From: Desulfosudaceae bacterium
GTDB lineage: Bacteria > Desulfobacterota > Desulfobacteria > Desulfobacterales > Desulfosudaceae
Assembly (NCBI GenBank): GCA_963674745.2
Contig: CAXXDV010000001.1
Span: 704,001 to 768,000, forward strand
Length of the DNA stretch: 64,000 bases
Reading direction: 5' to 3'
The notes under the pieces were generated by a model, which saw only the letters and a program-made list of their open reading frames with translations, did not search any database and was not told the DNA's origin. Positions 6,568-61,922 of the stretch are shown in pieces. Both the position numbers and the translations under genes were made by a program. Numbering within the stretch: the first letter of the stretch is position 1; every line of letters begins with the position of its first letter.

Positions 6568-6727
6568 GATAAAAACGCCCTGCACGATGTGCCCCCATGT
6601 AAATTCGCGATACGGAAAGCATTGATTTATCATGCTGAATATGTTATAAAATATAAACATTTTTTTTGCTGTTAAGATGTATTGATCAGGAAACGTGCCT
6701 TAACCTGGATTACCGAAAGGACGCCAC

Positions 6728-7021: not shown

Positions 7022-7034
7022 ATAGCACATCGCC

Positions 7035-7805: not shown

Positions 7806-8711
7806 ATGACGTACAAGCACAAAACATATGCACTGGCGACATTGATCATTCTCGCGATTGTTCTTCATCCAGGAATCCTTTTGGCCGAAAAACTGCCCGC
7901 AGACCAGGTCAACATTTCCACCCCTGTTTACACCCCGCCCAAATCCTTTGCGCCGCAGCTGGGTCTTTATTCATATTCGGTTTCATGGAACGGCATCCCT
8001 GCCGGCAGTGCCGAGCTTGAACTTGATCGCAATGACGAGAGCTATGAAATCCGGGCCCGTGCGCGAACAGCCAAAGGGATCGACCTGATTTATAAGCTTC
8101 GTTACAAATCCGAAACCGTTCTTGATGCCGATACGCTCAAGCCAAAGCACTCGTTTTCCGTTGTATCCGCAAATTCCAGAAAAAAGACAACCCAGGTCGA
8201 ATTTCTTCCCGACGGTGAAATTCTTTCCACCCGTAAAAACCATCGGGGCAGCGTCAAAACATTAAAATTCAACCCCGACAATTTCACCCTTGATCCTTTT
8301 TCCGCCGGGTTTCTGGCCTTGAGCCAGGAATGGAAAGTGGGAGAAAGCCGGCAGTTTGATCTGTTCAGCGGTAAAAGCCGTTACTTGATCGAATTTTCAG
8401 CAGTGGAACAGGTCAGTTTAACGGTAAACGGAGAACTGCGTTCAGCCATCGTGATCGTTCCCAAGGTAAAATCCCTGACTCAAACCGGTGACGATGCGGA
8501 TGAGAAAAAAATGCGGGAAACACGAATTTTTATTGCCGCAGATCCCTCCCGTGAAATCCTTAAAGTATCCAGCGACCTTCTGTTCGGTAGTGTGAATACG
8601 GAGATAGTGGCCTTTACGCCTGCAGGGACGTCACCGGCGTCTGACACAGACAAAGGCGAAGTTGCTACAGTTGTCCCCCCTTTTTTATATCCCTTTGACA
8701 CAGCCTTATAA
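7806..8711 (+). CDS. Secreted DUF3108-like protein
   Basis: Signal peptide; YSVSWNGIPAG, TLDPFSA and FDLFSGKSRY patterns of DUF3108-like beta-rich proteins. Confidence 0.7.
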   Translation: MTYKHKTYALATLIILAIVLHPGILLAEKLPADQVNISTPVYTPPKSFAPQLGLYSYSVSWNGIPAGSAELELDRNDESYEIRARARTAKGIDLIYKLRYKSETVLDADTLKPKHSFSVVSANSRKKTTQVEFLPDGEILSTRKNHRGSVKTLKFNPDNFTLDPFSAGFLALSQEWKVGESRQFDLFSGKSRYLIEFSAVEQVSLTVNGELRSAIVIVPKVKSLTQTGDDADEKKMRETRIFIAADPSREILKVSSDLLFGSVNTEIVAFTPAGTSPASDTDKGEVATVVPPFLYPFDTAL

Positions 8712-49465: not shown

Positions 49466-49853
49466 CAATATTCTCCTTCGTGTTATGACAGTCCCAGCAA
49501 TAGGGCCTTACGGACGTATAATTATGACAGGCATCACAGAATTCGGACTTATTGGAATGACAATCAAGACAGGTGTTGGTCAGACTCATGTCATATTCCT
49601 CACCCTTGTTGTTGATATAAGTCCTCTTGGCATTCCGTACGACATCTTCCCGCCATTCGTCAAGAAGCTGCATATGCTCTTTTTTCATAAAATCTTTTGA
49701 CTCTACGCAGTGTTTCGCCTCTTTGGCTTTATCGCTCAGCTTCGGCTCGGGTGCTTTGTCGGAACTTCCGGCAAACAGATTCCACCAGAGCGGCGTCAAC
49801 GCGATTATGAGGACAACGACCAACCCGGTTATAATCAGCCCTTTATTCTTCAT
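49458..49853 (-). CDS. dsrJ: DsrJ trihaem cytochrome c
   Basis: CLDCH, CDACH, CWDCH; CV..M..HMQLL. Confidence 0.95.
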   Translation of the reverse strand: MKNKGLIITGLVVVLIIALTPLWWNLFAGSSDKAPEPKLSDKAKEAKHCVESKDFMKKEHMQLLDEWREDVVRNAKRTYINNKGEEYDMSLTNTCLDCHSNKSEFCDACHNYTSVRPYCWDCHNTKENIDG

Positions 49854-51495
49854 CTACTTCCTCCTCTGCTCCCAGGGGTTCGCCGCGCAGGTTCATTTCT
49901 CTTGGCCCTTCTTCTCCCGGAAAGACAAGGGCATTGGCAACCAGCTCATGCAAGCCGATCACGTCCACCTCCGGAACCCAGTATTCCATCAGCGCGGGGA
50001 ATACCGCCCGATCAATCGCACAGATGCAGCCCAGCATATTTACGCCATGTTTTTCATGTACATATTTGACCGCGTTGGCTCTGGGCAGGCCGCCGGACAT
50101 GCGCAGTTCCATATCTTCACCGGCGTTGAGTCCGGCACCACTGCCGCAGCAGAAAGTCTGTTCCCGAATGGTGTTCGGCGGCATCTCGTAAAAATGGTTA
50201 CAAACATTATTGATGACATATCTTGGTTCATCCAGCAGCCCCATCCCCCGGGCCGGGTTGCAGGAATCATGGAAGGTCAGCTTGACGTAATCATTCCTTG
50301 AAGGATCAAGCTTTAACTTGTCATGCTTGATCAGATCGGCGGTAAATTCCGCGATATGAACCATTTTAGTGGCATTGGCATTCTCAAAATGGGTGCCTGT
50401 AATGGGTGACACCGGTTCTTCCAGAAAGTCGGCCGGTCCGTTCATGGTCGCCATGTACTGATGAATGACCCGCCACATGTGACCGCACTCACCGCCCAGA
50501 ATCCATTTAACACCCAGCCGTTTGGCTTCGGCATACATCTTGGCATTCAACCGTTTCATGGTTTCATGGGAGGTAAAAAATCCGAAATTGCCGCCCTCAG
50601 AAGCGTAGGTGCTCCAGGTCACATCAAGACCGTAGACCTTCTTCAGATAATCAAACAGCATCATGTAGCCCATGCAGGTATAGGTTCCCGGATCGGCGAA
50701 CACATCACCCGATGGGGTAATAAAAAGGATGTCGGCCCCTTTTTTGTTCAACTGCGGCGGATCGATTTTTATGCCCGTGAACTCTTCAATATCCTCGACA
50801 AAAAAGTCCAGCATATCTTTGAAGGCATGGGGCTGAATACCGAGATGGTTGCCTGTCCGGTAGCAGTTGGCTACCGGGGTAGCGATCCAGTCAATATTAA
50901 GACCGATCAGGTTCAGCAGTTCCCGGCCCATAATGGTAATTTCAGCGGTATCAATCCCGTACGGGCAGAATACCGAACAGCGGCGGCATTCCGTGCATTG
51001 AAAAAAGTAGTACCACCACTCCTTGAGCACATCCAGGGTCAGTTCCCGCGCGCCGGAGATATGCTTGCCGAACAGTTTATGCATAACCTTGCCGGCCATG
51101 GTAAAATCGTTGCGATAAACCGACCGTAACAGCTCGGCTCTTAATACCGGCATGTTTTTGGGATCGCCGGTTCCAAGAAAAAAGTGGCATTTATCGGCGC
51201 AGGCCCCGCAGCGCACGCAAATATCCATGAAGACCTTGAAGGTCCGGAACCGTTCCAGCCGCTCTTTAAAGCCTTCATGAAGAATCTGCTGCCAGTTTTC
51301 AGGAAGCTTCCAGTCATCCTCCAACGGATTCCAGCTTCTGGGGTACGGCAGCCCTACATATTCAACGCTTTTCGGATTTGACGCGTAGCAGTACATGCCT
51401 TCCTTGATGACAACCGGCGTATCCATCCACCCCGTCCGGGGCGTTCGGTGATCCGTCCTTGCCAGCAGTTCATCCGGTTTAATATCATTTCCCAT
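49843..51495 (-). CDS. dsrK: DsrK (HdrD-like Fe-S subunit)
   Basis: CVRCGACADKC, CTECRRCSVFCP, GECGH, HDSC, CCGSG. Confidence 0.96.
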   Translation of the reverse strand: MGNDIKPDELLARTDHRTPRTGWMDTPVVIKEGMYCYASNPKSVEYVGLPYPRSWNPLEDDWKLPENWQQILHEGFKERLERFRTFKVFMDICVRCGACADKCHFFLGTGDPKNMPVLRAELLRSVYRNDFTMAGKVMHKLFGKHISGARELTLDVLKEWWYYFFQCTECRRCSVFCPYGIDTAEITIMGRELLNLIGLNIDWIATPVANCYRTGNHLGIQPHAFKDMLDFFVEDIEEFTGIKIDPPQLNKKGADILFITPSGDVFADPGTYTCMGYMMLFDYLKKVYGLDVTWSTYASEGGNFGFFTSHETMKRLNAKMYAEAKRLGVKWILGGECGHMWRVIHQYMATMNGPADFLEEPVSPITGTHFENANATKMVHIAEFTADLIKHDKLKLDPSRNDYVKLTFHDSCNPARGMGLLDEPRYVINNVCNHFYEMPPNTIREQTFCCGSGAGLNAGEDMELRMSGGLPRANAVKYVHEKHGVNMLGCICAIDRAVFPALMEYWVPEVDVIGLHELVANALVFPGEEGPREMNLRGEPLGAEEEVDEE

Positions 51496-51498
51496 CGA

Positions 51499-52524
51499 TT
51501 ACTCCTTTTCCAGTGGTAGACCAACATCTTTCATCTTTTCCCTGAACTCATCCTCATACTCATCATAGGTATGGGTATGCACGTCGTAGTTCCAGGGATT
51601 AATATGTCTTATCGCGCGGGTGGTATTGGCCATATTGCGCGTCGGTGACAGGAATATGCCGCCAGCGTGCATCAGTTTGCTGTAAGGGAAATAGGCCACC
51701 AGCGTGCTGACCAGGATTAGATGGACATAAAAAAGCGCGCCCACGCCTTCCGGTGTGTTGGGGCTCAATGTTACCAGGCCCATGGCAAAGGCTTTAATGG
51801 ACAGAATATCCACTTTGGCAAAATACCGCATCAGGATACCCGTAGCAGCAATACCGATAATCAGAAACAGCGGAAAATAATCCGAAGCAAGCGATACATA
51901 TTTTACCTGCCCCAGAAAGACTCTTCTGCCCAGAAGCACCAGCAGAGCAGCCAGCAGCACCAGACCGGACATATACACCCCGGGCAGGCCGATGACAAAA
52001 TACGGCGAGAAGAATTCCAAACGGAAGAATGAATCGGCATTCTCCAGAAGCTGGATAACCCAGGGAACCGGTTCAAAGAAAAACCGCATATGCCGCAAAA
52101 GCACCACGGCAAACGCGTAATGAAACGCCAGCGCCGTTACCCAGAGAACGATCTCCCACCGATAGGAGAGCCGGTAATCATCTTTGAACTTGGCCTTGGT
52201 GTTCCGAAACAGTGAACGAAACAAAAAGACCTCAAAGAACATACGGATCAAAACACCGAGGGTCGTGTTCGGATTATCAATCTTATTCTGCTTGATCCAG
52301 GGAAGGCTTTTCTGCTGACCGCAGGTGGTGGGGATGCGGAAAGGGACGGCGGAGTTTGCCCAGCTCAGCACTTTTCGGACTACCCCGACAACAAACAGCA
52401 GGATCGCCAGATATGGAATGATTACGCCGAAAAAGGCTGTCATCCCCAGGGCATCAACCCCTATCCAGGTCAGCAGGATGAGAATCACAACTGTCGCAAA
52501 AGAAAACAGATAACTTACATTCAT
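51499..52524 (-). CDS. dsrM: DsrM (NarI-like cytochrome b)
   Basis: PFRIPTTCGQQKSL, FH..RH, PYSKLMHAGG, RHINPWN. Confidence 0.95.
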   Translation of the reverse strand: MNVSYLFSFATVVILILLTWIGVDALGMTAFFGVIIPYLAILLFVVGVVRKVLSWANSAVPFRIPTTCGQQKSLPWIKQNKIDNPNTTLGVLIRMFFEVFLFRSLFRNTKAKFKDDYRLSYRWEIVLWVTALAFHYAFAVVLLRHMRFFFEPVPWVIQLLENADSFFRLEFFSPYFVIGLPGVYMSGLVLLAALLVLLGRRVFLGQVKYVSLASDYFPLFLIIGIAATGILMRYFAKVDILSIKAFAMGLVTLSPNTPEGVGALFYVHLILVSTLVAYFPYSKLMHAGGIFLSPTRNMANTTRAIRHINPWNYDVHTHTYDEYEDEFREKMKDVGLPLEKE

Positions 52525-52591
52525 CAACTGCACCTCTCTATAAAAATTTCATCAACTCATTACGGCCGCAGCCGGTAACTTTTTCAATAGG

Positions 52592-53104
52592 TCAGGCATC
52601 CGTTTCCGGGCCGACCATCAGCCCCGCTCTTTCAAACGCCTTGAACGTCCTGTTCCTGACCTCATAGGCCTGGATTTTAAAAATCTTTTCGCGGCACTCC
52701 ACGTACTTATTAAAACCGATCAAGGCCAGCTCATCAATTTTCTGATCAACCTGCCTGATTTTCTCGGCATTATCCGCCTTTTTACCGACGACATCCCTGA
52801 TAATTTGTTTTAAAAGGAAAATAAACGAAACGGCCTGGGCAGGCGTAAAATCCTGCACCGCCCGTACCCGAATGGCGGGATCCAGGCTTTCCGCCAGATC
52901 ATCATTAGATGCCTGGCCGGCCAGCCCTTCAACAACTTTGGTCAGACTTTCCGAAAGCATACCGGACACGGGATTGGCGAAACGATTTTTTTCCTTTAAA
53001 AAAAAGGATGCCGCTTCTGCCTGATAGGACTTCAGCGCGGCCTCGAGCCATTTTTTGGCAATTGCCTCTTCATGCCCGGATATCAGTGTTTCAATTTGTG
53101 TCAT
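52592..53104 (-). CDS. dsrT: DsrT (RsbRD N-terminal-like)
   Basis: RFANPV, IRVRAVQDFTPAQAV, Y..CREKI; directly upstream of dsrM. Confidence 0.85.
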   Translation of the reverse strand: MTQIETLISGHEEAIAKKWLEAALKSYQAEAASFFLKEKNRFANPVSGMLSESLTKVVEGLAGQASNDDLAESLDPAIRVRAVQDFTPAQAVSFIFLLKQIIRDVVGKKADNAEKIRQVDQKIDELALIGFNKYVECREKIFKIQAYEVRNRTFKAFERAGLMVGPETDA

Positions 53105-53389
53105 GACTGTTTTTACAACCTGGCCGAATCTCAGCGGCTTTCGAAATTCACCGCTCGACCCGCCCGTTTTAAGGACAATGTTGGAACCGAAAAAAGACGG
53201 CACTCATCCTTTATGAATAAAAAGTTTTATATAACCAAGCATCTTGGCCCTGTCAAGTAAAAAGGAAGCCTTTGCATCCTTATCATTTTTCAAATTATTG
53301 CAGGCTGGTTAAGAAGCCACCGGGATCGTCCGAATTATTGGCTTGACATGAAGTGTCGGAAGGTGATATCCATTTTTTATTTTTCAGAC

Positions 53390-53466
53390 CGGGGCGTGGC
53401 GCAGTCTGGTAGCGCACTTGCATGGGGTGCAAGGAGTCGCAGGTTCAAATCCTGCCGCCCCGACCA
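53390..53466 (+). tRNA. tRNA-Pro (GGG)
   Basis: CGGGGCG acceptor, cttgc-atggggt-gcaag anticodon arm, GGTTCAAATCC, 3' CCA; 77 nt. Confidence 0.96.
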
Positions 53467-53475
53467 CACACTTCT

Positions 53476-54018
53476 TCATAACAGTTGTTTCCCACAGAGG
53501 TGCTTCAGCTTCGACAAAGCATCAGGATCATCAATAGAAACAATTGCTTCCGGCCCTAAAAGCCATTTCCGACAGACCGGTTCGACCAGCGATTTTCGGA
53601 CAATCCAGAAGTGTCCGGCCCTCGTGAGGGTCAGCAACGGAGCCAGTTGCCCGGCCCACCCCGATCCGGCCAGTTCCAGCTGGCCGATCTCATCCACTAC
53701 GATCCAGTCCGCCGAACAGCAGCGGCTTATTGACAGGGCTTCTTTTCCGGCCGCCAGCCCCTGATCGAAAAAGGTAAACCCCGTAGCCGCGTCGTTGGCA
53801 GGGGCAGGGTTGCGCCGGGCCAGTGGCGTGACGCGATCGTTGCCCAGGTCGACCAGATCAAACCCCGATCGCTGATTGCTCTGCCAGTGTCCGCGGGCGA
53901 TGATGCCGGCCACTTTACCCCCCTGTTGTTTCATCCAGTCGATTAGCGCTTCGGCCAGGGTGGTTTTTCCGGACTGGGTATCGCCGGTGATAATGATCAC
54001 CCGCGGTCGCTCATTCAT
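53476..54018 (-). CDS. P-loop NTPase (NTPase_1 / DUF2478-like)
   Basis: GDTQSGKT, GFDLVDL, IVVDEIGQLE; start overlaps the ABC ATPase end. Confidence 0.85.
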   Translation of the reverse strand: MNERPRVIIITGDTQSGKTTLAEALIDWMKQQGGKVAGIIARGHWQSNQRSGFDLVDLGNDRVTPLARRNPAPANDAATGFTFFDQGLAAGKEALSISRCCSADWIVVDEIGQLELAGSGWAGQLAPLLTLTRAGHFWIVRKSLVEPVCRKWLLGPEAIVSIDDPDALSKLKHLCGKQLL

Positions 54019-54799
54019 CAAAAATCGCTTTCGGCAGAAACACCTGCCTGTTGCCGGAAATGTTGACGGCCATGGTTTCGGCTTCATACAACCGGTCCAT
54101 GTTGATTTTTGTCATGACTTCGGCTGTCGGGCCGGACACGATGACCCGGCCGTCCTGAAGCATGATGACCTGATCGGCGAAAAGCATGGCCAGGTTGGGG
54201 TCGTGCATGGCAGCCACCACGCTGATGCCCCGGGTCCGGCAAATGGTCTTAATGGTTGTCAGCAACCGGTACTGATTGTGAAAATCCAGGTGGTTGGTGG
54301 GCTCATCCAGCAGCAGCACATCGTTGGTCTGGACCAGCGCCCCGGCCAGCAGGGCCATCTGCCGCTCCCCACCGGAAATCCGGTTAAAATTGCAGCCGGC
54401 CAAATGCCCGGCATTGAGCATGTCCAGCGCCGATTCCGCCATGGCATAGTCTTCCGCTTTGGGACTGGCGGTCATACCCAGGTAGGGCGCCCGGCCCATG
54501 ACCACCACTTCCAGGACGGTAAACGGAAAGATATCGACATGTTCCTGGGGTACCAGGCTGACGTTCCTGGCCACCGCCTGACGTGGCAGGGTACTCAAAT
54601 CAATGCCGTTGACCGTCACACTCCCTGCGCAGGGCATCAAAATGGTATTCAGACAATGCAGAAGCGTTGTTTTGCCCGAGCCGTTGCGGCCCAGCAGGGC
54701 ACAGAATACGCCCGCTTCAATATCAAACGAGATATCAGTCAAAATGGGACGGCCGTTGTACTTAAACCCGATTGACCGGCAGGACAGTTTTACATCCAT
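54011..54799 (-). CDS. Type II ABC importer ATPase (FecE/BtuD-like)
   Basis: GRNGSGKT, ISGGERQ, LLDEPTNHLD, MHDPNLA. Confidence 0.93.
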   Translation of the reverse strand: MDVKLSCRSIGFKYNGRPILTDISFDIEAGVFCALLGRNGSGKTTLLHCLNTILMPCAGSVTVNGIDLSTLPRQAVARNVSLVPQEHVDIFPFTVLEVVVMGRAPYLGMTASPKAEDYAMAESALDMLNAGHLAGCNFNRISGGERQMALLAGALVQTNDVLLLDEPTNHLDFHNQYRLLTTIKTICRTRGISVVAAMHDPNLAMLFADQVIMLQDGRVIVSGPTAEVMTKINMDRLYEAETMAVNISGNRQVFLPKAIFDE

Positions 54800-55842
54800 C
54801 CGCTCCCCCTGTTCCTGAAAAGCAGATAGGCGAAAATCGGGGCCCCGGCCAGGGCGGTGATAATGCCCACGGGGATTTCACTGGTCGTCAGGCTGCGGGC
54901 CGCGTCATCGGCCGCCAGCAGCAGAATACTGCCCAGCAGGGCCGTGACGGGCAACATGTGCTTGTGATCGGGCCCGACCAGGGTGCGGGCGATATGGGGC
55001 ACCACCAGGCCGATCCAGGCGATCTGCCCGCAGACCGACACGGTGATGGCCACGATCAGGGAGCTGGCGGAAATCAACACAAACCGGAACAGGCGGGGTT
55101 CAACCCCGTGTGCCCTGGCCTGGAGATCGCCCAACGAAAGAATGTTCAAACGAAACCGCATCAGCAGAAATAACACCAGGATCCCAAGACAAAAGGGTGC
55201 GGTAATGATGACATCGGTCCAGGTCACCCGGGTCAGGCTGCCCATGATCCAGAAAACGATTGTGGGCAGTTCTTCAAGCGGGTCGGAAAAATATTTAACC
55301 ACCATCAGCAGTGCATTAAAGAACGAGAGCACCACCATACCGGCCAGCACCAGCACGATGACCGGTTTAACGGCTACCAGGCGGGCGATGCCCAGGGCGG
55401 TATAAACCGCCAGCAGCCCAAAGGCAAAAGACAGCAGATGGACCAGCGCAAAGGAATGGCCGGGCATTACCAGTCCAAGGGCGGCGCCGAAGGTACAACC
55501 GGCCGCCACACCCAGGATATCCGGCGATACCAGGGGGTTTCTGAAAAGCCCCTGGTAAACGGCACCGGACAGGGACAGGCTCATGCCGACCATGATCGCC
55601 ATCAGGCACCGGGGAACCCGCAACCACCAGATCACCATGGCATCGGCCGTCAGGGGTTCCGTCGAAAAATTACCGGACAGGAGGCGGGATAAAAACGTCG
55701 CCAGTTCACTACCGGCCACGTTGAATCGGCCCATTGAAAGGGAGGCGACAAAGAGGAGCACCAGCACCAGAAACAGGATGATGATCAGTTTTCCGGGACC
55801 GCCCAAGGGGCTGTTACCGGAAGATCGGGATTCAAAAGTCAT
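54790..55842 (-). CDS. Type II ABC importer permease (FecCD/BtuC-like)
   Basis: LRVPR, QGLFRNPLVSPDILG, FWIMGS, IGLVVPHIAR, EIPVGI. Confidence 0.93.
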   Translation of the reverse strand: MTFESRSSGNSPLGGPGKLIIILFLVLVLLFVASLSMGRFNVAGSELATFLSRLLSGNFSTEPLTADAMVIWWLRVPRCLMAIMVGMSLSLSGAVYQGLFRNPLVSPDILGVAAGCTFGAALGLVMPGHSFALVHLLSFAFGLLAVYTALGIARLVAVKPVIVLVLAGMVVLSFFNALLMVVKYFSDPLEELPTIVFWIMGSLTRVTWTDVIITAPFCLGILVLFLLMRFRLNILSLGDLQARAHGVEPRLFRFVLISASSLIVAITVSVCGQIAWIGLVVPHIARTLVGPDHKHMLPVTALLGSILLLAADDAARSLTTSEIPVGIITALAGAPIFAYLLFRNRGSGWM

Positions 55843-56897
55843 TGTCTGCCCAATATGTTATCTGCCAGTTCACCGCCCATGTCGCTCAGGGACTGACCGA
55901 ACAGGTCCCGGTGAAATTGATTGATCATTTTCATGGTCTGGCCCTGATCAAAATGATCGGGATAGGCCTTTGCCGCCAGCCAGAGGGTGGCCAGAACAGA
56001 CAGCGGGGAGGGGAAATCCCAGGGCGACAGGGTGGACGGGAAACGATAAACAGCCTTATCGGCCACTGCCGGGACACCTTGAAAAACAGGGCTGCCCAGA
56101 CGCCGGGTCACGCTGCTGTCCAGACTCTGGGAGAGCACCATCACATCCGGGTTCCAGCGGATGAATTGTTCCGGCGACACTTCCTGAAAATAGCCGGAAA
56201 GGTCATGGGAAACGTTGACCAGACCGGCCGTGGCCAGGATTTCGTCCTGGAGCATATTACCGCTGGTGGTGCTGAACAAACCGCGCGGCGAAGCGTAGTA
56301 AACGCGTTTCTTTTTTTCAATCACCGGCCCGGCCAGTTTTTCTTTCACCAGGGCAAGAACGTCATCCATCCTGGATGCTGCCGGAATCAGGCTTTCATCA
56401 TCTCCCACCGCACGGGTAATGAGTTCCAGGGCCTGCTTGATACTGTCAAATGTTTCCGGGACAATAATGATCGCCGGGATGCCCAGATGCTGCAGGCGGT
56501 CGGCCAGCGCACGCCCGTCTTTCTGGGCGTAAAGAATCACCAGGTCCGGCTTGACCGATAAGATGGTCTCCAGGTTCAAGCCGGCTGATTTCTTGCCGAC
56601 GGCGGGGACACCGGCCACACCGGGATATACTGCCTGATGAAGCCGGTCTTTTCGGGAATCGGTATCAATACCGACCAGTTTTTTCTGCAACCCAAGGCAG
56701 AAGACACACAGGGTTGCAGGCTTATATGTGGTCACCAGGCGATTGACCGGCCCGTTTATGGTAACAGGACGTCCGGCCATATCGGTTATCACGCGACCGC
56801 GGGTTTTGTCCTGAGCCATGGCCGGGAGCGACAGAAACGTAATCAGCAATAGCAACCCGCTGATCCTGACGGCTTTAGTAAATCGTGTGCTTATCAT
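55839..56897 (-). CDS. Class III periplasmic binding protein (BtuF/MolA-like fold)
   Basis: Signal peptide, ITDMAGRPVTI, NLETILSVKPDLV, VSPEQFIRWNPDV, WDFPSP..WLAAKAYPDHF. Confidence 0.9.
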   Translation of the reverse strand: MISTRFTKAVRISGLLLLITFLSLPAMAQDKTRGRVITDMAGRPVTINGPVNRLVTTYKPATLCVFCLGLQKKLVGIDTDSRKDRLHQAVYPGVAGVPAVGKKSAGLNLETILSVKPDLVILYAQKDGRALADRLQHLGIPAIIIVPETFDSIKQALELITRAVGDDESLIPAASRMDDVLALVKEKLAGPVIEKKKRVYYASPRGLFSTTSGNMLQDEILATAGLVNVSHDLSGYFQEVSPEQFIRWNPDVMVLSQSLDSSVTRRLGSPVFQGVPAVADKAVYRFPSTLSPWDFPSPLSVLATLWLAAKAYPDHFDQGQTMKMINQFHRDLFGQSLSDMGGELADNILGRQ

Positions 56898-57006
56898 TTC
56901 GCCATCCTCATGTCATGATTTGGGTCCGAATATACCATCAATCGGCGCTAACGCCAAGAGAGAGGGAAAATCCGCCGCGCCTAAATTGAAAATAAAACCG
57001 GTATTG

Positions 57007-57885
57007 TTATTTTCTGGTCGTCACAACCGAGACGATCAGGTAAGCCAGAAATGTGAGAATCATGAACGCGTAAACACCGAAAAAAAGCTCATGAAGCGGA
57101 TTTTCAACAACGGTGATGACGGCGCCGACAGCGGGAACACCCGTGTCCGGCAGCGACTTTTCAGGGATTAGAAAAAAACGGTTAAGGGTAACACGAAAAG
57201 CGCCCCGTCGATAGGGCTTTAATAAACAGGCGCGCCCGCCTTGAATTGTTGCGCCTTCCCTGGAAACGGAAAAATCGATATAATTATCCTTCAGCCTGAC
57301 GCGGTCCCGGGTCAACAATTGGCGGCGTTGTTGACGGTCTTTATGCTGCAGAACAGAAGCAAAGGAACAGCTTGCCGATTTCAGTTCAATGGTGGTGCCA
57401 TCCGGTAAACCGTTGCTCTGCCCGGGCAGCAGTTCCATGTTGGATGACTTAAACCCGATGGCCATGTGCGCCCCATGCCCGATCATCACCAGCCCGATAA
57501 GCACATGCAGGGTAAAGAGCAGCAGCGGTCTTGCCCCGCTGTTCAAGCGGATTTTCAGGGCCGGTTGCATGAAGCAGCAACAGGCGAGGTTGATAAACAG
57601 CAATCCGGACAACCCCATCAGCACGATCAGCCAGCCGCTGATCAGCGGGTGCGAGGCGGCGCTGTTTCCCAGCCAGGACAGGATCAGTTCATCGTTCATG
57701 CCCTTGATAATGCTGTCCGCAACCGGATGCCGGGTCAGCAGGATCCCCATGCCCAGCCACAGGGCCAGGGCGGCCATGAGCACAAAGCAAAATGACAGTG
57801 ACGACAGGTGCTCAACCAGCCCCCGGAAAACGGATGCCCGGCTTTCGGTAAGGGTTATTTCGCCAGCGCCGTTTTTGATTACCAT
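57007..57885 (-). CDS. ResB/CcsB-like membrane protein (short, divergent)
   Basis: TM1, TM2 with LFINLACC, TM3 with LHVLIG, beta-rich soluble region, ENP before the last TM; starts in the ccsA-like stop region. Confidence 0.68.
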   Translation of the reverse strand: MVIKNGAGEITLTESRASVFRGLVEHLSSLSFCFVLMAALALWLGMGILLTRHPVADSIIKGMNDELILSWLGNSAASHPLISGWLIVLMGLSGLLFINLACCCFMQPALKIRLNSGARPLLLFTLHVLIGLVMIGHGAHMAIGFKSSNMELLPGQSNGLPDGTTIELKSASCSFASVLQHKDRQQRRQLLTRDRVRLKDNYIDFSVSREGATIQGGRACLLKPYRRGAFRVTLNRFFLIPEKSLPDTGVPAVGAVITVVENPLHELFFGVYAFMILTFLAYLIVSVVTTRK

Positions 57886-58604
57886 ATGAACAACCCCGTG
57901 ACGGCCGCCGCCGTTCCCAGGTGAAGGCCAAACCGCCATGGCGTCCGACGGGCCAGGGATACCGGGAGGTGAAAGTTGAGCATGAAAAGAAAAAAGACCA
58001 TGGCGGACTCAAAGAAGTTGTCGCTCCAGTGCCAGGAGTCCCCCCAACCCAGCAGGCACCAGACGGATCCGGACAGCTCACTGCATAAAAAAGTAATGGC
58101 ACCGGCCATGAACAACTGCCGGTCGAAATCCTGCCGACCGCTGCTGAGTGCGGCCGTCAACCCCAGGGTCGCGGTCAGCATGACACCGGCTGAAAGCTGT
58201 TTAAAGAAAAAAAACCCCTGGGCCAGGGGGCTGACATACATAAAATAATCATGATTCAGTTGCAGCCTGGCCAGGCCCCCCAGGGCGCAGAGCAGGGTCA
58301 GCGCCAGCCCGAACAGAACAAGAACCGCCCGGTCATCCCGGTAGCGGGGCCTTGCCACCAGCAGACCGGCCAGTGTCCAGCCCAGCACCGAGATCGATTC
58401 ATATCCGCCGACAAGGGGAAGCCGATGAAGGGAAAAAGCAAACACCCCGATATGAATGGACAGCAGAATAAAACCGGTCGCAGCGGGGAAAACGGCCGGG
58501 CGCATCCTGTTTCCCGGTCCGGCCAAAACGGCGGTGAGCAAAAAGCACACCGCCGCGGCAAGGAACATCATTGTGGCACCCGGGATAATAGTAATTCCTG
58601 TCAT
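57879..58604 (-). CDS. CcsA/ResC-like WWD-domain membrane protein (divergent)
   Basis: RLPLVGGYESI, SGSVWCLLGWGDSWHWS, then ESAMV..NFH. Confidence 0.78.
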   Translation of the reverse strand: MTGITIIPGATMMFLAAAVCFLLTAVLAGPGNRMRPAVFPAATGFILLSIHIGVFAFSLHRLPLVGGYESISVLGWTLAGLLVARPRYRDDRAVLVLFGLALTLLCALGGLARLQLNHDYFMYVSPLAQGFFFFKQLSAGVMLTATLGLTAALSSGRQDFDRQLFMAGAITFLCSELSGSVWCLLGWGDSWHWSDNFFESAMVFFLFMLNFHLPVSLARRTPWRFGLHLGTAAAVTGLFIW

Positions 58605-58616
58605 ATTATCCTGCTA

Positions 58617-60698
58617 TTAGAACCTGGCGCTGGCCCCCACCCGATACATCCGTCCCCGGCCGGGGAAGCCGATTTCCTGTTCATAGTCTTCATCAAAGAC
58701 ATTATCCACTTCCACAAAACAGGTGACAAGGTCTTTAAATGTTCTGGAAATCCGGGTATTCGTAATCAGATAATCATCGGTGGTGGTGGCTTCAAGGTCC
58801 GGATCACCGGTGGTCGGCAGGGTGTCGTACATACTGTTAACGTAAATGGCCTGCAAATCAACATTTACCAGGCAGACGGGAATAACGAACCCGCAGCCGA
58901 CGCCCAGCTTGTGTTCCGGCACGTTGGCCACCCGGCCGGTGGCCCGGTTGTCACTCCGGTTATCAGCGTCATTGAAGGTATAATTGAGGTTGAAGCGGAG
59001 GGTCTCGGACGGCACCACGGCCAGGTTCATTTCCACACCTGCCATGGCGATATCTTCGGTATTGGTGAAAAGTTCTTCCCCGGTGTAATCGTCTTCATAA
59101 TAATCCCGGGAAATCCAGTCGGAAATATCATGGTAAAAAGCAGCCACATCAACCGTTGTGCAGGTCCCGAAGGCTTTTCTGACCCCCAGCGTATAGTTGA
59201 TGGTGGACTCTGAGTCAAGTTCCGGATTGCCACCACTGGAAGAGTAAAGCTGAAACAGGGTCGGGAACCGGGTCTTCCGGGCGATGGATCCATAGAGGGT
59301 GGCGTCCTTGATCAGGCAGTCAAAGCCGATCATGGGGTTGAACTCATCTTTTGTGCCGGGCGTATCGAGCGCGGCCTGGCCAAGCAGAAAGTCATCATCG
59401 TCAAAGACATAATCTTCGGCTTCATCCACCTTGAACCAGTCGTAGCTGACGCCGGCATAAACGGTCAGGATGTCGGTGGGACGGAACTCATGCTCGGTGC
59501 CGACAGAGCCGGTGTAGGAGGCGTAGTCATTGTAGGGCATCCAGGAATCATCCCGGGATTCATGATCGTCTTTTTTGTAGTGCAGGCTGATATGCCCCTT
59601 ATGGTAGTCTGCAGACGAGTAGTCGGTAAACAAAGAAGCGCCCAGGATATTGTCTTTGTAGGTGCTTTTGGCAATGGCGGTTTCCATATCCGGACCGTCA
59701 TAGGAAACATACTCATCCTCGTGATCGTGATAAAATAATTTTCCCCGCAGGGCCAAACCGTCACTGAAGGTATGGCGGCCGCTCAAATCTATGCCCATGT
59801 CATTATAATTTTCAAACCGCGCAAACGTCGAAAAGGCGGGGTTGTCATTTTCCCGGGTGAAAATCCGGTATTCGTTGGTGGCCAGAGGGTGACCTTTTTC
59901 CGTTTGCAGGGTATGAAAACTGATAAAATATTCGGATTGCTCGGTGGGGGTCAGGCCGAACCGGGCCCAGAACTTGTCTTCTTCATAATCCGAGTTCTCC
60001 CGGCGGCCGCCGTCTTCATGGATGCCGTCCAGGTCGGGCATAAATTTTCTGGCGCGAACCGCTGTTTCCGGATCAAAATGATCTGAAAGCGTCCAGCCGT
60101 CGCTTTCCTGACGATTATAACTCAGCCAGTAGTTGAATTTGCCGACCTGATTGCCGTGGGACAGGGAAAGATTATATGTCCTGTCTTCACCCCACTCGCC
60201 CTTGACATGAAAGGTGGGGTCTTCGGTTCCCTGCTGGGTGATAATATTCACTACTGCGATCTGGGCATTGGCGCCGTAAAGGACCGAAGGCGCGTTCTTG
60301 GTAACTTCGATCCTGGAAATAATATCAACCGGGATCTGATCCAGATTCAGTTTACCGTAATAGGTCTCATAAAAAGGAATACCGTCGATCAGAAACAGTG
60401 TCTTTTCCTGGGAAAAGCCATGCACGGAAACCTCGGCTTCGTTTTTTCGCCCCCGGGTCATGGTGATGCCCGGCGCGAACTTCAGGGCTTCGGCCACGGT
60501 CTTGCTGTTATTGGTTTTTATATCTTCTGCGGTAATCACATGGGTGATGGCGATGTCTGAAACGGCGGTCTTCTCACCGGTCACGACAATTTCGCCCAGC
60601 GTATAACCCTTTGTTTCAGAAGTCGATTCAGCAGCCAGGGCAGCGGCTGCCAGAGTCAGACAAACGACCAGGACCATTCCCTGAAGGACATGTTTCAT
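58617..60698 (-). CDS. TonB-dependent receptor
   Basis: Signal peptide, TonB box EIVVTGE, plug (LIDGIP..RIEVTK..SVLYG..VVNIIT), NPEL, VDNVFD..GRMYRVGASARF; GGGGGAG RBS. Confidence 0.95.
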   Translation of the reverse strand: MKHVLQGMVLVVCLTLAAAALAAESTSETKGYTLGEIVVTGEKTAVSDIAITHVITAEDIKTNNSKTVAEALKFAPGITMTRGRKNEAEVSVHGFSQEKTLFLIDGIPFYETYYGKLNLDQIPVDIISRIEVTKNAPSVLYGANAQIAVVNIITQQGTEDPTFHVKGEWGEDRTYNLSLSHGNQVGKFNYWLSYNRQESDGWTLSDHFDPETAVRARKFMPDLDGIHEDGGRRENSDYEEDKFWARFGLTPTEQSEYFISFHTLQTEKGHPLATNEYRIFTRENDNPAFSTFARFENYNDMGIDLSGRHTFSDGLALRGKLFYHDHEDEYVSYDGPDMETAIAKSTYKDNILGASLFTDYSSADYHKGHISLHYKKDDHESRDDSWMPYNDYASYTGSVGTEHEFRPTDILTVYAGVSYDWFKVDEAEDYVFDDDDFLLGQAALDTPGTKDEFNPMIGFDCLIKDATLYGSIARKTRFPTLFQLYSSSGGNPELDSESTINYTLGVRKAFGTCTTVDVAAFYHDISDWISRDYYEDDYTGEELFTNTEDIAMAGVEMNLAVVPSETLRFNLNYTFNDADNRSDNRATGRVANVPEHKLGVGCGFVIPVCLVNVDLQAIYVNSMYDTLPTTGDPDLEATTTDDYLITNTRISRTFKDLVTCFVEVDNVFDEDYEQEIGFPGRGRMYRVGASARF

Positions 60699-60716
60699 TT
60701 ACTCCCCCTTATATTA

Positions 60717-60845
60717 AATTGATATTGTTATTCAAATTTTGAAAATTAGGATTTATCGTTATTAAATGTCAATACAATTTTTATATTTTTAATCAAATGG
60801 GTTTAAAATAACAGAAAATAACCTATATTAACCATATTTTAATAT
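60717..60845. promoter_or_regulatory. Divergent regulatory region: -35 TTGACA, Fur-like palindrome and 10-bp-phased AATAAC repeats
   Basis: TTGATATTgTTATTCAA at 60719-60735; TTGACA (minus) at 60767-60772; AATAAC at 60807 and 60817, ATTAAC at 60827. Confidence 0.5.
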
Positions 60846-60977
60846 AAAGGGGCCAGGGATTCGAGGGGTCAAGGGGTCACATGACGGATGCAGGACTTGT
60901 CTTTCAGCCCGGTTTGCGCTAATAAAACTTAATATCCATGCTGAAAATCGGATACCCCCATCCTGAAAGGGTCACTC

Positions 60978-61922
60978 ATGAAAAAACTGTTATCAACACG
61001 GGAAGTTGCAGAGTACCTGGGCGTCAATGAAAAAATGGTCTATTCTCTGGTTTCGGCAAAAGGCCTGCCCGCCTCAAAGGTCACCGGCAAATGGGTTTTC
61101 CCTTTGCACCTGGTGGATGAATGGATGGAAGCCAACACGCTGAACTATCCCAGCCGTGCCCTTGACAAGGCCTCGGGGCATCCCCGGGTGATTGTCCTGG
61201 CCGGCAGCAACGACATTCTGCTTGAAAAAACCATCGGCCTTTTCAACCGCTCCTTTCAGGACCACCTGGCGGTTTTTGCCAACCTGGGCAGCATGGGCGG
61301 ATTGCGGGCGCTTCGCAGGGACCTGTGCCATATCGCTTCATCACATCTGCTCCAGGAAAACGAAGCGGACTATAATTTTGAATTTGCCAACCGGGAATTC
61401 AACCAGGTGCCGGTCATGGTCAACTTCTGCCGCCGTGAGCAGGGATTTCTGCTGCGATCAGGCAACCCGAAAAAGGTTCAGTCCATTGCAGACATAAAAA
61501 AACCGGGGATTCGGCTGATCAACCGTTCGGTCGAAACGGGTACCCGCCACCTGTTCGACCGGGAAGCGAAAAAGGCGGGGATCGACCCGGAAACCATCGA
61601 GGGCTATCAAAACGAAGCCAACAGCCATATGGAGGTCGGCCTGGAGATAAAATCCGGACGGGCCGATATCGGCCTGGGTATCCGAACGGTAGCCGGCCTT
61701 CTGGGATTGGATTTTATCCCGCTGCGCTGGGAACGGTATGATCTGATGATCGCCAAAGACCGGTTTTTTGATAAACCCGTCCAGTATTTTCTGGGCATCA
61801 TGCAGGAAGCGGAATTCAGGGAAATAGCAAGCTCGCTGGAAGGATACGACGTCTCTACGGCCGGCAAAATCATCTATCCGCAGGAACCCGTGGCATTGGA
61901 TTCGAATTCCCGAAAAAAATGA
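60978..61922 (+). CDS. Excisionase-like HTH plus molybdate/tungstate-binding (PBP-like) regulator, TaoR-like
   Basis: LSTREVAEYLGVNEKMVY..LPASKVTGKWVF; AGSND, GSMGGL, SHLL, RREQG, INR..TGTR, ERYDL. Confidence 0.88.
   Translation: MKKLLSTREVAEYLGVNEKMVYSLVSAKGLPASKVTGKWVFPLHLVDEWMEANTLNYPSRALDKASGHPRVIVLAGSNDILLEKTIGLFNRSFQDHLAVFANLGSMGGLRALRRDLCHIASSHLLQENEADYNFEFANREFNQVPVMVNFCRREQGFLLRSGNPKKVQSIADIKKPGIRLINRSVETGTRHLFDREAKKAGIDPETIEGYQNEANSHMEVGLEIKSGRADIGLGIRTVAGLLGLDFIPLRWERYDLMIAKDRFFDKPVQYFLGIMQEAEFREIASSLEGYDVSTAGKIIYPQEPVALDSNSRKK

Follow-up and report, generated by a model that had tools for sequence, protein, structure and literature searches.

Why would a TonB-dependent uptake operon of a Desulfosudaceae bacterium carry two membrane proteins that resemble the components of a cytochrome c synthetase? 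The question is raised by a minus-strand unit of seven tightly spaced genes within the 64,000-nucleotide stretch of DNA analyzed here (hereafter, the window). In gene order, these encode a TonB-dependent outer-membrane receptor (58617-60698; 693 aa, with a signal peptide and plug and barrel domains), a CcsA-like membrane protein (57879-58604; 241 aa), a ResB/CcsB-like membrane protein (57007-57885; 292 aa from M19), a MolA-like periplasmic binding protein of cluster A (55839-56897), the permease (54790-55842) and ABC ATPase (54011-54799) of a type II importer, and a P-loop NTPase of the NTPase_1/THEP1-like type (53476-54087). The unit is divergent from a plus-strand gene (60978-61922) for a TaoR/TunR-type regulator. 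ORF coordinates and Pfam matches confirm the original prediction of seven co-oriented genes opposite an HTH-PBP regulator. The combination of receptor, importer and CcsBA-like pair was not found described in print.

A 12-nt gap separates the receptor and CcsA-like genes, and the latter overlaps the ResB-like gene by 7 nt; after a gap of 109 nt, the binding protein and permease genes overlap by 4 nt, the permease and ATPase genes by 10 nt, and the ATPase and NTPase genes by 8 nt (77 nt if the longest NTPase ORF is used). Judging from relatives of 172-176 aa, the true start of the NTPase is likely the second methionine, at 54018. The longest ORF of the ResB-like gene spans 57007-57939 (310 aa), and M19 is the start in relatives and in the database copy. 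The earlier observation that the unit encodes no CxxCH cytochrome was borne out, with neither CxxCH nor CxxCK present in any of the eight proteins (operon and regulator), and no CcdA or ResA-type thiol-reduction gene was noted within the operon with Pfam and NCBIfam.

Receptor, importer and regulator

The receptor matches the Plug (3.7e-22) and TonB_dep_Rec_b-barrel (2.3e-27) families and scores under every NCBIfam cut-off, among them those for BtuB (136.9 vs 599.7) and haemin receptors (115.6 vs 316.85); its best NCBIfam match is a siderophore-receptor subfamily (9e-44; 150.1 vs a cut-off of 223.5). Its loop reads RFPT-LFQLYSSSGG-NPEL and, as noticed at the outset, contains no His between RFPT and NPEL.

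Among characterized systems, the permease and binding protein are most similar, by overall match score, to those of MolBC-A (HI1470/HI1471/HI1472), the type II molybdate/tungstate ABC importer of Haemophilus influenzae, described in the available text of PMC4031551 as a molybdate importer. The binding protein (Peripla_BP_2, 1.8e-19) has MolA (HI_1472; 7.9e-22) as its best characterized match, ahead of BtuF (1.7e-8) and the haem-binding protein 2r7a (2.1e-7); 4hn9 (3.8e-34), named 'iron complex transport system substrate-binding protein', and 4ovk (9.3e-28) score higher, with no ligand named in the match table. The permease (FecCD, 1.7e-79) is closest to MolB (HI1471; 2.1e-63, 217.8 bits), followed by FhuB (1e-49, 172.8 bits), HmuU (3.5e-48, 167.8 bits) and BtuC (5.7e-37, 130.9 bits), and the ATPase (ABC_tran, 1.3e-27) matches FhuC (1.5e-38) and HI1470 (1.3e-36). 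Unlike MolBC-A, the window importer is coupled to a TonB receptor, a CcsBA-like pair, an NTPase and a TaoR-type regulator. The BtuB-BtuFCD and Hmu/Phu systems share its layout of receptor, cluster A binding protein, FecCD permease and ATPase, but are more distant from it than MolB and MolA. The NTPase matches NTPase_1 (1.8e-16), MobB (7e-5) and DUF2478 (1.4e-4) weakly in the latter two cases, and the human THEP1-type NTPase 2i3b (3.7e-4).

The regulator combines PBP_like (2.4e-66) and HTH_17 (5.6e-13) domains. TunR, a tungstate-responsive regulator, is grouped with TaoR. TaoR has the same HTH_17 and PBP-like architecture and, in the available text of PMC11980592, regulates a tungsten enzyme; the likeness of the window regulator to TaoR and TunR is one of domain architecture, not of sequence comparison. 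The same genome encodes a paralogue of the regulator upstream of modABC; modA is preceded by an unassigned 488-aa gene, from which the paralogue diverges. In a minus-strand stretch ahead of the receptor gene (60742-60823), a TTGACA box precedes a conserved AATAACGATAAATCCTA stretch (60742-60772), and TGTTATTTT occurs as a direct repeat (60805-60823); these are the only long exact matches between the window and locus L003 intergenic regions, and the stretch may, judging from its sequence, serve as a promoter/operator. No such exact match was found to the modA upstream region of the same genome, nor was an operator shared with that region.

A divergent CcsBA-like pair

The likeness of the two membrane proteins to CcsA and ResB, seen by eye, holds, though only through deeper profiles and fold searches. 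On their own, the two proteins match no Pfam family at E<=0.01; the window CcsA-like protein has no match to PF01578, and its sole NCBIfam match is CcsB (E 0.0018, 18 bits vs a cut-off of 187.6). A search of 1.84 billion representatives with an HMM of the nine closest CcsA-like relatives recovered 130 clusters (E<=1e-3), and a 92-sequence family profile made from these matches aligned with the genome's own CcsA (hhalign 98%, E 1.7e-13, 232 columns) and with residues 639-886 of Helicobacter hepaticus CcsBA (7s9y; E 6.2e-13). The AlphaFold model of the CcsA-like protein is poor (pLDDT 52). For the ResB-like protein (pLDDT 74), the top structural match is CcsBA (7s9y; Foldseek E 6.5e-5; VIA Z 10.5, rmsd 3.5 over 216 residues in the CcsB part, chain 3-337), and a 32-sequence profile aligned with the genome's own ResB (hhalign 91%, E 1.1e-6). 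Thus, both proteins belong to the CcsBA/ResBC haem-handling superfamily.

The pair is distinct from the genome's canonical ResB (PF05140, 9.9e-82) and CcsA, which sit together on contig 3; the PF01578 model hits two genes elsewhere in the genome, one adjoining ResB and one adjoining hemA. At 292 and 241 aa, the window proteins are about one third shorter than the canonical pair (at least 393 aa, and 279 aa). The two-part architecture is the same as in CcsBA (7s9y/7s9z), with a transmembrane His and a periplasmic beta domain in the ResB-like protein and a Trp-rich loop followed by a transmembrane His in the CcsA-like protein. His127 of the ResB-like protein corresponds to TM-His1, is invariant and aligns with the conserved ResB His; His212 of the CcsA-like protein corresponds to TM-His2, is 99% conserved and aligns with the His after the WWD domain of CcsBA. 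In contrast, the position of P-His1, which precedes the WWD in CcsBA, is occupied by Phe131 (Phe in 98% of the CcsA-like family), and P-His2 is absent from this family, with no His after the last helix and no further His reaching 30% conservation. The WWD motif itself, WGxYWxWDPKE in CcsBA, is remodelled to WGDxWxWSxxF, the loop of the window protein being GWGDSWHWSDNFFES. An additional His137, at least 90% conserved, lies in the ResB-like helix, some seven residues ahead of the periplasmic domain. According to the available text of PMC6299221, CcsBA conserves all four His and needs them for its function. Because both periplasmic ligands are missing, the pair does not consist of standard cytochrome c synthetases.

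The two proteins are predicted to form a CcsBA-like heterodimer. Modelled with haem, the complex reached an ipSAE of 0.89 (0.89-0.90 in three runs; best control 0.00), with a partner pLDDT of 89 and at least 97% of contacts agreeing between runs; 116 of 157 solved complexes attain the ipSAE mark, as do 2 of 215 mismatched pairs. As a comparable complex has already been solved, this score shows likeness, not binding. The predicted interface places loop 118-125 of the CcsA-like protein against the ResB-like periplasmic domain. From the retained ligands, we infer that the pair binds haem.

Speaking against a redox role, the retained WWD loop and whole CcsBA architecture suit a protein pair that moves or delivers haem no less than one that holds a static haem for redox work.

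Genomic neighbourhoods of the pair

The check proposed with the original prediction, whether the linkage recurs across genomes, was run. A scan of the phylum yielded 33 loci, which together with the window come from 32 genomes in 12 families. Altogether 51 loci with the divergent CcsA-like gene were compiled, including the window and two pairs of near-duplicates, and these are spread over 12 or more families within the phylum. A ResB-like partner is present in 41 of these 51 loci, in varied gene orders; a TonB receptor is encoded in 32, type II ABC importer genes in 12, and an NTPase follows the ABC ATPase in 8. Receptor orthologues were found in most receptor-bearing related loci (phmmer E 1e-292 to 1e-58), those of L077 and L079 being more distant (about 1e-18 to 1e-24). 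Since the linkage is widespread and the canonical ResB/CcsA pair lies elsewhere in the genome, the ccs-like genes are neither unlinked to importers in other genomes nor the cytochrome c maturation genes of this one.

Mo/W markers (ModABC, WtpABC, DUF364 or TaoR-type regulators) accompany the pair in 13 of the 51 loci. Four of these encode a TaoR-type regulator; L003, L009 and L013 share the HTH_17 and PBP_like architecture of the window regulator beside the pair. WtpABC is encoded in L006 (WtpA, 435.6 bits vs a cut-off of 355), DUF364 proteins in L057, L063 and L066, and a ModB-like permease in L073. In L055, L059, L061 and L062, the ModA/B genes (modA 291 vs 253, modB 355 vs 262, modC 314 vs 285) lie just downstream of ModE-like HTH_1 proteins or a NifB-like gene; a modABC operon is reported, in the available text of the sources, to be cofit with nifH (bioRxiv 10.1101/2024.03.05.583561, PMC2954201). 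It weighs against a Mo/W cargo that markers occur in no more than these 13 loci and that the loci are partly kin: four belong to a single family, L057 and L066 share a genus, and L009 is a near-duplicate of L013, so that about seven lineages are represented.

Together with the likeness to MolB and MolA, and with no cobalamin or Moco riboswitch detected (no hit passed the gathering score in the window or in L003-L009, and none had E<=1 within 60600-61050), these neighbours suggest that the cargo is probably Mo or W. The original prediction held that the cargo could not be decided from sequence; genomic context narrows it towards Mo/W, and the tetrapyrrole reading that it listed keeps some support from periplasmic tetrapyrrole-methylase-like domains and one CobN locus.

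Function of the pair

In 21 of the 51 loci, a Sec-exported CxxCH protein with sulfite-oxidase-like domains directly adjoins the pair, an arrangement that usually marks a dedicated haem lyase and that counts against the reading favoured below. The original prediction was correct on the identity of the pair and its linkage to an importer, but had set aside a haem-lyase role, which these loci revive. The pair would then be dedicated to a periplasmic partner of the uptake system, either delivering haem to it in the manner of System II or acting as its holocytochrome c synthetase. In relatives, that partner would be the CxxCH protein with two sulfite-oxidase-like domains; in the window, it would have been lost or be an unrecognized protein. 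ResB-like His137, or Tyr123 in the CcsA-like loop, which is conserved in part, would replace the missing periplasmic His. The CxxCH motif is kept in 9 of 10 aligned secreted proteins, which have Sec-type signal peptides, and an 8-CxxCH protein lies near the pair in L071. Dedicated CcsBA paralogues next to special cytochromes are known, such as NrfI and CcsA1. The full CcsBA architecture (TM-His pair, WWD-like loop and ResB periplasmic domain), the conserved His137 close to the periplasmic domain and the predicted contact of loop 118-125 with that domain are in line with such a role. However, the two periplasmic His reported as needed in CcsBA (available text of PMC6299221) are absent family-wide, and all proteins of the window operon lack CxxCH. 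The CxxCH protein is absent from the window genome. Its profile finds G279 and G221 but nothing in four genomes with the window-type cluster, G000 (99.96% complete), G206, G123 and G301 (completeness of the four, 99.96, 99, 96 and 89%), so that the pair also occurs where such a partner is missing. In four loci (L055, L059, L061 and L062), ModABC accompanies the pair and a CxxCH protein is lacking; moreover, the CxxCH motif is ordinary and could be served by the genome's canonical ResB/CcsA. We consider this explanation unlikely, although it is the strongest of the alternatives.

Quite unlikely, in our assessment, is a tetrapyrrole cargo (haem, a corrinoid or another metalloporphyrinoid) that the pair would handle at the inner membrane, holding it on its WWD-like loop or even conducting it inwards via the TM-His site; the association with nearby Mo/W genes would then be regulatory or coincidental. 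The CcsBA superfamily handles haem (PMC6299221, available text), and type II ABC importers carry haem and B12 too. In 10 or more loci (7 from the 51-locus count, plus L017, L052 and L054), periplasmic TP_methylase-like domains with GxGxGD- and GDP-like motifs adjoin the pair, as fusions with the CxxCH protein or in its vicinity; in L077, the importer is followed by a CobN/Mg-chelatase (1304 bits) and by a gene of the radical SAM type; and in 9 loci without an ABC importer, an APC-family permease is the only candidate inner-membrane route. Against a tetrapyrrole stand the lack of a cobalamin riboswitch in the regions searched, the receptor scores far under the BtuB and haemin cut-offs, with window proteins below every equivalog cut-off, and the RFPT..NPEL loop, which has no His in the FRAP/NPNL-like region. 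The permease scores 50 to 87 bits higher against MolB than against HmuU or BtuC, and the binding protein is nearer to MolA than to BtuF or haem binders. This explanation also leaves the ModABC, WtpABC, DUF364 and TaoR-type neighbours unaccounted for.

The unit might instead import iron or another metal chelate with reductive release, the pair acting as a membrane reductase of a ferric siderophore-like ligand, a role with parallels among inner-membrane siderophore reductases; the siderophore-receptor match, the iron-complex name of 4hn9 and the second rank of FhuB among the permease matches speak for it. These matches fall far below family cut-offs, as the receptor score illustrates, no Fur-type or siderophore biosynthesis genes were found in the 51 loci with the gene queries used, and the regulator and neighbours point to Mo/W, which makes this option highly doubtful. 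That the genes are functionless relics of a duplicated ccs operon, as scores below all Pfam and NCBIfam thresholds and the loss of two of the four His ligands might suggest, is scarcely credible and was already disfavoured, given the intact frames, the near-invariant residues across 92 and 32 diverse sequences, the co-occurrence of the two genes in 41 of the 51 loci, across 12 or more families and despite changing gene order, and the confidently predicted heterodimer.

As the TM-His site and the remodelled WWD are kept and the periplasmic His are lost, we favour reading the pair as a haem-b redox or handling module rather than a cytochrome c maturation machine. CcmF of System I, a member of the same superfamily (6zmq; 2.3e-6 by profile, Z 8.5 by fold), holds a stable b haem via two TM His and has a reductase role. 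It provides a precedent for TM-His-bound haem in redox work rather than export. CcmF differs in retaining the two periplasmic His and in acting on apocytochromes together with CcmH and CcmE; the window pair is without such partners.

In the favoured reading, the dedicated receptor would admit a Mo or W species to the periplasm, where the heterodimer, derived from the CcsB-CcsA (ResB-ResC) haem exporter and cytochrome c synthetase and built into the unit, would act at the periplasmic face on the incoming metal species or its carrier, for instance turning a sulfidic, reduced or chelated form into an oxyanion that the binding protein accepts. The MolA/MolBC-type importer would then move this species across the inner membrane, and the small NTPase would take it up or pass it on in the cytoplasm; the redox role of the pair, the chemical form of the cargo and the role of the NTPase are the conjectural parts of this scheme. 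The TaoR/TunR-type regulator, with its HTH_17 and oxyanion-binding-protein-like domains, would govern the divergent promoter. Tentatively, and with somewhat less than even confidence, we propose that the unit serves a sulfate reducer as a TonB-dependent acquisition system that responds to molybdate/tungstate and would have a CcsBA-derived haem-b station built into it.

The operon and its CcsBA-like pair

The original prediction of a seven-gene uptake operon facing a divergent regulator was borne out at its coordinates by ORF calling and by Pfam and NCBIfam searches. Seven close-packed ORFs on the minus strand (53476-60698) encode a TonB-dependent receptor with plug and barrel domains (58617-60698); a CcsA-like (241 aa) and a ResB-like (292 aa) membrane protein, together denoted the pair; a cluster A binding protein (Peripla_BP_2); a FecCD permease; an ABC ATPase; and a P-loop protein of the NTPase_1 family. 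The divergently transcribed regulator (60978-61922) combines HTH_17 and PBP_like domains. Pfam domains are clear in five of the seven operon ORFs and in the regulator, and genes 2 and 3, which encode the pair, have no Pfam family at E <= 0.01. A motif search of the operon proteins detected neither CxxCH nor CxxCK.

The host genome (5.5 Mb, 99.96% complete) encodes DsrM (523 bits) and DsrK (731 bits; NCBIfam), members of the DsrMKJOP complex, just downstream of the operon and on the same strand (49843-52533), which identifies the host as a dissimilatory reducer of sulfate or sulfite. These two genes are followed by one for an RsbRD_N-domain protein (52592-53203), the whole stretch covering 49843-53203. 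A tRNA-Pro(GGG) gene (53390-53466) abuts the 3' end of the operon, and the operon (53500-58500) has a higher G+C content, 0.55-0.59, than its flanks (0.47-0.51). Given the tRNA neighbour and the raised G+C, the operon could have been horizontally acquired beside the tRNA gene.

Neither PF01578 (Cytochrom_C_asm) nor any other Pfam family matched the CcsA-like protein, and its sole NCBIfam match was to CcsB (E 0.0018, 18 bits versus a cut-off of 187.6). A word-indexed search of 5.8 billion proteins returned only 8 relatives for each protein of the pair. An HMM built from the 9 closest CcsA-like sequences matched 130 clusters at E <= 1e-3, 104 of them at E <= 1e-10, among 1.84 billion cluster representatives. 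From these, a family profile of 92 aligned sequences (A3) was assembled, comprising the window protein, five of its closest relatives and 86 near-full-length cluster representatives. This profile aligned by hhalign with the canonical CcsA of the same genome (probability 98%, E 1.7e-13, 232 columns) and with the CcsA part of Helicobacter hepaticus CcsBA (7s9y, residues 639-886; E 6.2e-13). Two hhalign comparisons with the 9-sequence profile had reached only 19.5% and 7.5%. Decisive homology to CcsA thus came only from the 92-sequence profile, single-sequence and shallow-profile comparisons being indecisive. At E <= 0.01, PF01578 matched 28 members of this 92-sequence family but not the window protein. 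As judged by profile comparison, the CcsA-like protein is a member of the CcsBA superfamily that lies outside the curated PF01578 family. Its AlphaFold model is poor (pLDDT 52, pTM 0.42).

The ResB-like protein was modelled with AlphaFold from an alignment of 8 sequences (pLDDT 74, pTM 0.60), and the best match of the model was CcsBA both in Foldseek (E 6.5e-5) and in VIA (Z 10.5, 216 residues superposed with an rmsd of 3.5 A, chain positions 3-337, the CcsB part); the next VIA match of comparable length was CcmF (Z 8.5). The 32-sequence ResB-like profile (A5) aligned with the genome's own ResB (91%, E 1.1e-6). The pair is truly CcsA- and ResB-like, though distant. The two proteins are predicted to form a complex with an ipSAE of 0.89 (0.89-0.90 across runs; partner pLDDT 89; contacts agreeing in at least 97%), compared with 0.00 for the best of three controls; of 157 solved complexes, 116 reach the ipSAE mark used, as do 2 of 215 mismatched pairs. 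As CcsBA has already been solved, this prediction indicates likeness and is not proof of binding. Look-alikes in the ESM Atlas are annotated as 'cytochrome c assembly' and 'Oxidored_molyb' and come mostly from Thermodesulfobacteriota.

According to PMC6299221, CcsBA has four conserved histidines, all of them needed: TM-His1 and TM-His2, in the membrane, bind haem during its export, and P-His1 and P-His2, in the periplasm on either side of the WWD domain, bind it in the synthetase site. Residue numbers for these histidines did not turn up in PMC10663686. In the CcsA-like protein, His212 (99% conserved) lines up with the 7s9y histidine at index 858, which comes directly behind the WWD domain. 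We take that CcsBA residue to be TM-His2, in line with the topology given in PMC6299221; the positions 761, 858 and 897 assigned to the CcsBA histidines agree with the alignment indices. The conserved transmembrane histidine of the ResB/CcsB fold (TM-His1) corresponds to His127 in the ResB-like protein: all 32 aligned sequences have it, and it matches the histidine of the genome's own ResB. Both flanking periplasmic ligands are absent from the CcsA-like family: 98% of members have Phe in place of P-His1, ahead of the WWD domain, the chain stops short of where P-His2 would lie, and any further histidine stays below 30% conservation in the family alignment. The Trp-rich loop reads WGDxWxWSxxF, as opposed to WGxYWxWDPKE in the canonical WWD domain, with W182, G188, W191 and W193 near-invariant. 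The ResB-like family has a histidine of its own, His137, ten residues past His127 and at least 90% conserved. With His212 and His127 kept and the periplasmic histidines lost, the transmembrane haem site of the pair looks intact and the external site appears rebuilt without histidine.

A profile search of the genome with PF01578 matched two other genes. One adjoins ResB (PF05140, 9.9e-82), forming a canonical ResB-CcsA pair. The other, also canonical (277 aa; contig 1, about 1.775 Mb, L002), lies without an adjacent ResB between genes for glutamyl-tRNA reductase (hemA) and a sirohaem-synthase-like protein, an arrangement like that of HemX. Since CcmC and CcmF of System I should match PF01578 too, and only these two genes do, cytochrome c maturation in this cell appears to depend on System II. 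The presence of a canonical ResB-CcsA pair elsewhere, and of an operon without a CxxCH protein, suggests that the pair is not the general maturation system for the cell's CxxCH apocytochromes.

Recurrence of the pair beside uptake genes

Loci with a CcsA-like gene were collected from a species-representative pattern scan (7 loci), a metagenome scan (10 loci) and the best 38 places found when 401 genomes of the phylum were scanned with a profile. Five of the 38 proved to be canonical CcsA (L080, L082, L083, L086 and L087) and were dropped, leaving 51 loci including the window, with two near-duplicates (L005/L010 and L009/L013). ORFs were classified by local HMMs and phmmer, and representative ORFs were checked against Pfam and NCBIfam. 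At E <= 1e-20 the profile matched 247 of the 401 genomes; these matches also include canonical CcsA and are not a measure of prevalence. The 33 loci retained from that scan belong to 31 genomes, so that, counting the best places only and the window's own genome, at least 32 of the 401 genomes, in 12 families, carry the pair's CcsA-like gene.

A ResB-like gene lies near the CcsA-like gene in 41 of the 51 loci, a TonB receptor in 32, a secreted CxxCH protein in 21, type II ABC genes in 12, an APC-family permease in 9 and the NTPase in 8. Six of the ten loci lacking a ResB-like gene stop at or just past the CcsA-like gene (L008, L011, L015, L016, L018 and L019). The receptors are mostly of one family (phmmer E 1e-292 to 1e-58 against the window receptor), those of L077 and L079 being more distant. 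Gene order varies: receptor-pair-importer in the window and L003/L004, importer-NTPase-pair in L050/L051, and pair-receptor-importer in L057/L066. This variation argues for selection on co-occurrence rather than inheritance of a single block.

Several loci have peculiarities of their own. ORFs of 535-587 aa in L060 (8621-10228), L069 (8916-10679) and L070 (6918-8576) match the ResB-like query and also overlap a CcsA-like profile match; they looked fused, but HMM testing of the collected loci detected no single ORF carrying both halves. L084 (3498-9487) has its receptor, permease and CxxCH protein each broken into two or three ORFs, through frameshifts or poor assembly. The CcsA-like gene of L076 contains an in-frame TAG, and CxxCH is missing from the sulfite-oxidase-like protein next to it. 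In L006 (2468-7164), from a metagenome-assembled genome, a defence island adjoins the uptake cluster: a BrxB-like gene and a TOTE conflict-system protein (AEP-TOTE 2.4e-97, plus helicase and PLD domains) lie upstream of the receptor.

Molybdenum and tungsten markers

Six lines of evidence point to molybdenum or tungsten as the cargo. The regulator has the architecture of TaoR, an HTH_17 DNA-binding domain joined to a PBP-like sensor domain; TaoR is described in the consulted part of PMC11980592 as the regulator of a tungsten enzyme. Regulators of this architecture adjoin the pair in 4 of the 51 loci, and a structure database search found no solved relative of the window regulator at E <= 0.01. 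A paralogue of the regulator in the same genome lies upstream of a bona fide modABC operon (modA 191 bits versus a cut-off of 62.5, modB 226 versus 183, modC 372 versus 285). It is divergent from a gene for a 488-aa protein (L100, 5893-7359, contig 3) that sits between it and modABC, precedes modA and has no NCBIfam match at E <= 1e-10.

Transporters of known type occur beside the pair itself. In four loci (L055, L059, L061 and L062), ModABC genes scoring above curated cut-offs directly follow the pair, with ModE-like HTH_1 proteins or a NifB-like gene upstream, and in L006 the pair, receptor and CxxCH protein are followed by WtpABC (WtpA 435.6 bits versus 355). DUF364 genes occur after the NTPase in L057 and L066, and close to the pair in L063; this family is reported to be conserved beside molybdate and tungstate transporters, and its modABC operon in Methanococcus to be cofit with nifH.

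The window importer itself is closest to MolBC-A, a type II molybdate/tungstate importer, in its cluster A binding protein, FecCD permease and ATPase. The closest solved relative of the permease is MolB (HI1471; 217.8 bits), 45 bits ahead of the next, FhuB scoring 172.8, HmuU 167.8 and BtuC 130.9. MolA is the third match of the binding protein and the best characterised one (7.9e-22, versus 1.7e-8 for BtuF and 2.1e-7 for a haem binder), and the ATPase matches HI1470 (MolC) at 1.3e-36. Overall, at least one molybdenum or tungsten marker occurs in 13 of the 51 loci, in about seven independent lineages. Each genome contains a handful of genes of this kind (profile searches of the host found three strong PBP_like matches and one ModA-like gene), so by rough reasoning, rather than a formal test, 13 of 51 is far above chance.

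Scores for other cargoes fell below their NCBIfam cut-offs. Unlike BtuB-BtuFCD, the window system has neither an equivalog-level match (BtuB 136.9 versus 599.7 bits, BtuF 54.7 versus 234, BtuC 210.4 versus 461) nor a cobalamin riboswitch. Rfam searches of the window and L003-L009 gave nothing but two tRNAs at the gathering score, and the region 60600-61050 gave nothing at E <= 1; no cobalamin or Moco riboswitch was found in any of these, which is the sixth line of evidence for molybdenum or tungsten. The receptor scored 115.6 bits against the TonB-hemin family, versus a cut-off of 316.85. Haem receptors of the HmuR/PhuR type have a conserved histidine between their FRAP and NPNL boxes; the corresponding stretch of the window receptor, RFPT-LFQLYSSSGG-NPEL, has no histidine. 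The receptor also has partial matches to the CU, PUIUD, PCPU and FCYXU motif families (E 7e-24 to 2.4e-19), all far below the cut-offs. In the upstream regions, long exact matches were limited to a conserved stretch between the window and L003; the other loci have only short AT-rich words in common with it, and no 9-mer is common to the regions upstream of the operon and of modA in this genome.

Possible roles of the pair

The secreted protein found beside the pair in 21 loci (about 340 aa, Sec-exported) contains two Oxidored_molyb-like domains of the sulfite-oxidase fold and has CxxCH in 9 of 10 aligned sequences. The molybdenum-binding Cys of SorA aligns with Val or Leu in this protein, and its signal peptides are not of the twin-arginine type; it is therefore probably a c-type cytochrome lacking Moco. 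In L017, L052-L054, L072, L081 and L085 a secreted TP_methylase-like domain either forms part of this protein or comes after it, and in L059 a TP_methylase-like protein comes after ModABC and the pair. An APC-family permease (AA_permease_2, about 1e-54) accompanies the variant with CxxCH and TP_methylase-like domains in L017, L052, L053, L072, L074, L081 and L085, where it may provide the inner-membrane route; the same loci often encode exbB-exbD-tonB and a DUF6802 protein.

These neighbours bear on whether the pair is a dedicated haem lyase. Haem delivery to a partner fits the CxxCH neighbours and also L071, where a 744-aa protein with eight CxxCH motifs (6284-8518) is encoded about 1 kb from a divergent CcsA-like/ResB-like pair, with no TonB receptor nearby. 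However, no homologue of the secreted CxxCH protein was found in the window's own genome (G000) with a single-sequence query or with a 10-sequence profile; the profile, which does find G279 and G221, detected nothing in G000, G206, G123 and G301, all of which carry a window-type cluster, and this speaks against lyase activity as the sole role. We regard the lyase reading as unlikely overall. A tetrapyrrole cargo is somewhat less likely still. The TP_methylase-like domains fit a tetrapyrrole-like ligand, as does the divergent locus L077 (14449-19223), where two receptors, the pair and a type II importer are followed by a radical SAM gene and a 1269-aa CobN/Mg-chelatase (1304 bits); its CobN recalls the CobN-like genes of haem uptake operons, and L077 may represent a branch with tetrapyrrole cargo. 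That the system imports iron chelates with reductive release appears improbable, and that the pair is a relic hardly credible.

The scheme that we favour, and hold tentatively at somewhat less than even confidence as a whole, is uptake regulated by molybdenum or tungsten, in which the cargo would pass from the receptor to the MolBC-A-like importer and on to the NTPase. In this scheme His127 and His212 of the CcsBA-derived pair would bind a b haem between them, and the pair would act on the metal species entering the cell, or on its carrier, at the periplasmic face. The chemistry is conjectural: de-sulfidation or oxidation of thio- or reduced molybdenum or tungsten, or release from a chelator. 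As the periplasmic histidines are lost and loci exist that contain only the pair plus ModABC, a standard synthetase function is unlikely. CcmF is a precedent within the superfamily for redox work with a haem bound by transmembrane histidines.

Taken furthest, this reading makes the pair a haem module of CcsBA descent repurposed as a fixed part of TonB-dependent molybdenum or tungsten acquisition, a possibility that we consider doubtful. The transmembrane haem, with or without the secreted Moco-less CxxCH protein, would be used to convert sulfidic, reduced or chelated metal imported by the receptor into the oxyanion accepted by MolA-, ModA- or WtpA-type binding proteins.

All parts of the system come from known superfamilies, although Pfam has no model for either the CcsA-like or the ResB-like family. 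The literature covered, which includes few subscription journals, contained no link of a CcsBA-type pair to TonB receptors or to molybdenum or tungsten transport. Nothing relevant was found there on TunR and tungstate, nor on TonB with tungstate or molybdate (the consulted part of one paper mentions only T6SS-ModA/IcmP), and on thiomolybdate uptake only reviews were found.

If the repurposing is real, the system would be the first TonB-dependent route for molybdenum or tungsten and would embody the first function of the CcsBA superfamily beyond cytochrome c biogenesis; we see a substantial chance of both. Sulfate reducers require molybdenum or tungsten for formate dehydrogenases and aldehyde oxidoreductases, and live where sulfide sequesters both metals and free molybdate poisons sulfate activation. 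We know of no route by which these metals cross their outer membrane. The receptor family, the MolBC-type importer, the conserved NTPase and the two Pfam-less membrane families are candidates for it, and repurposing would explain how sulfate reducers supply themselves with molybdenum or tungsten in sulfide-rich water. With its transmembrane haem site kept and the external histidines absent, the pair is also a natural experiment on a haem-handling superfamily and can tell which parts of CcsBA serve which step.
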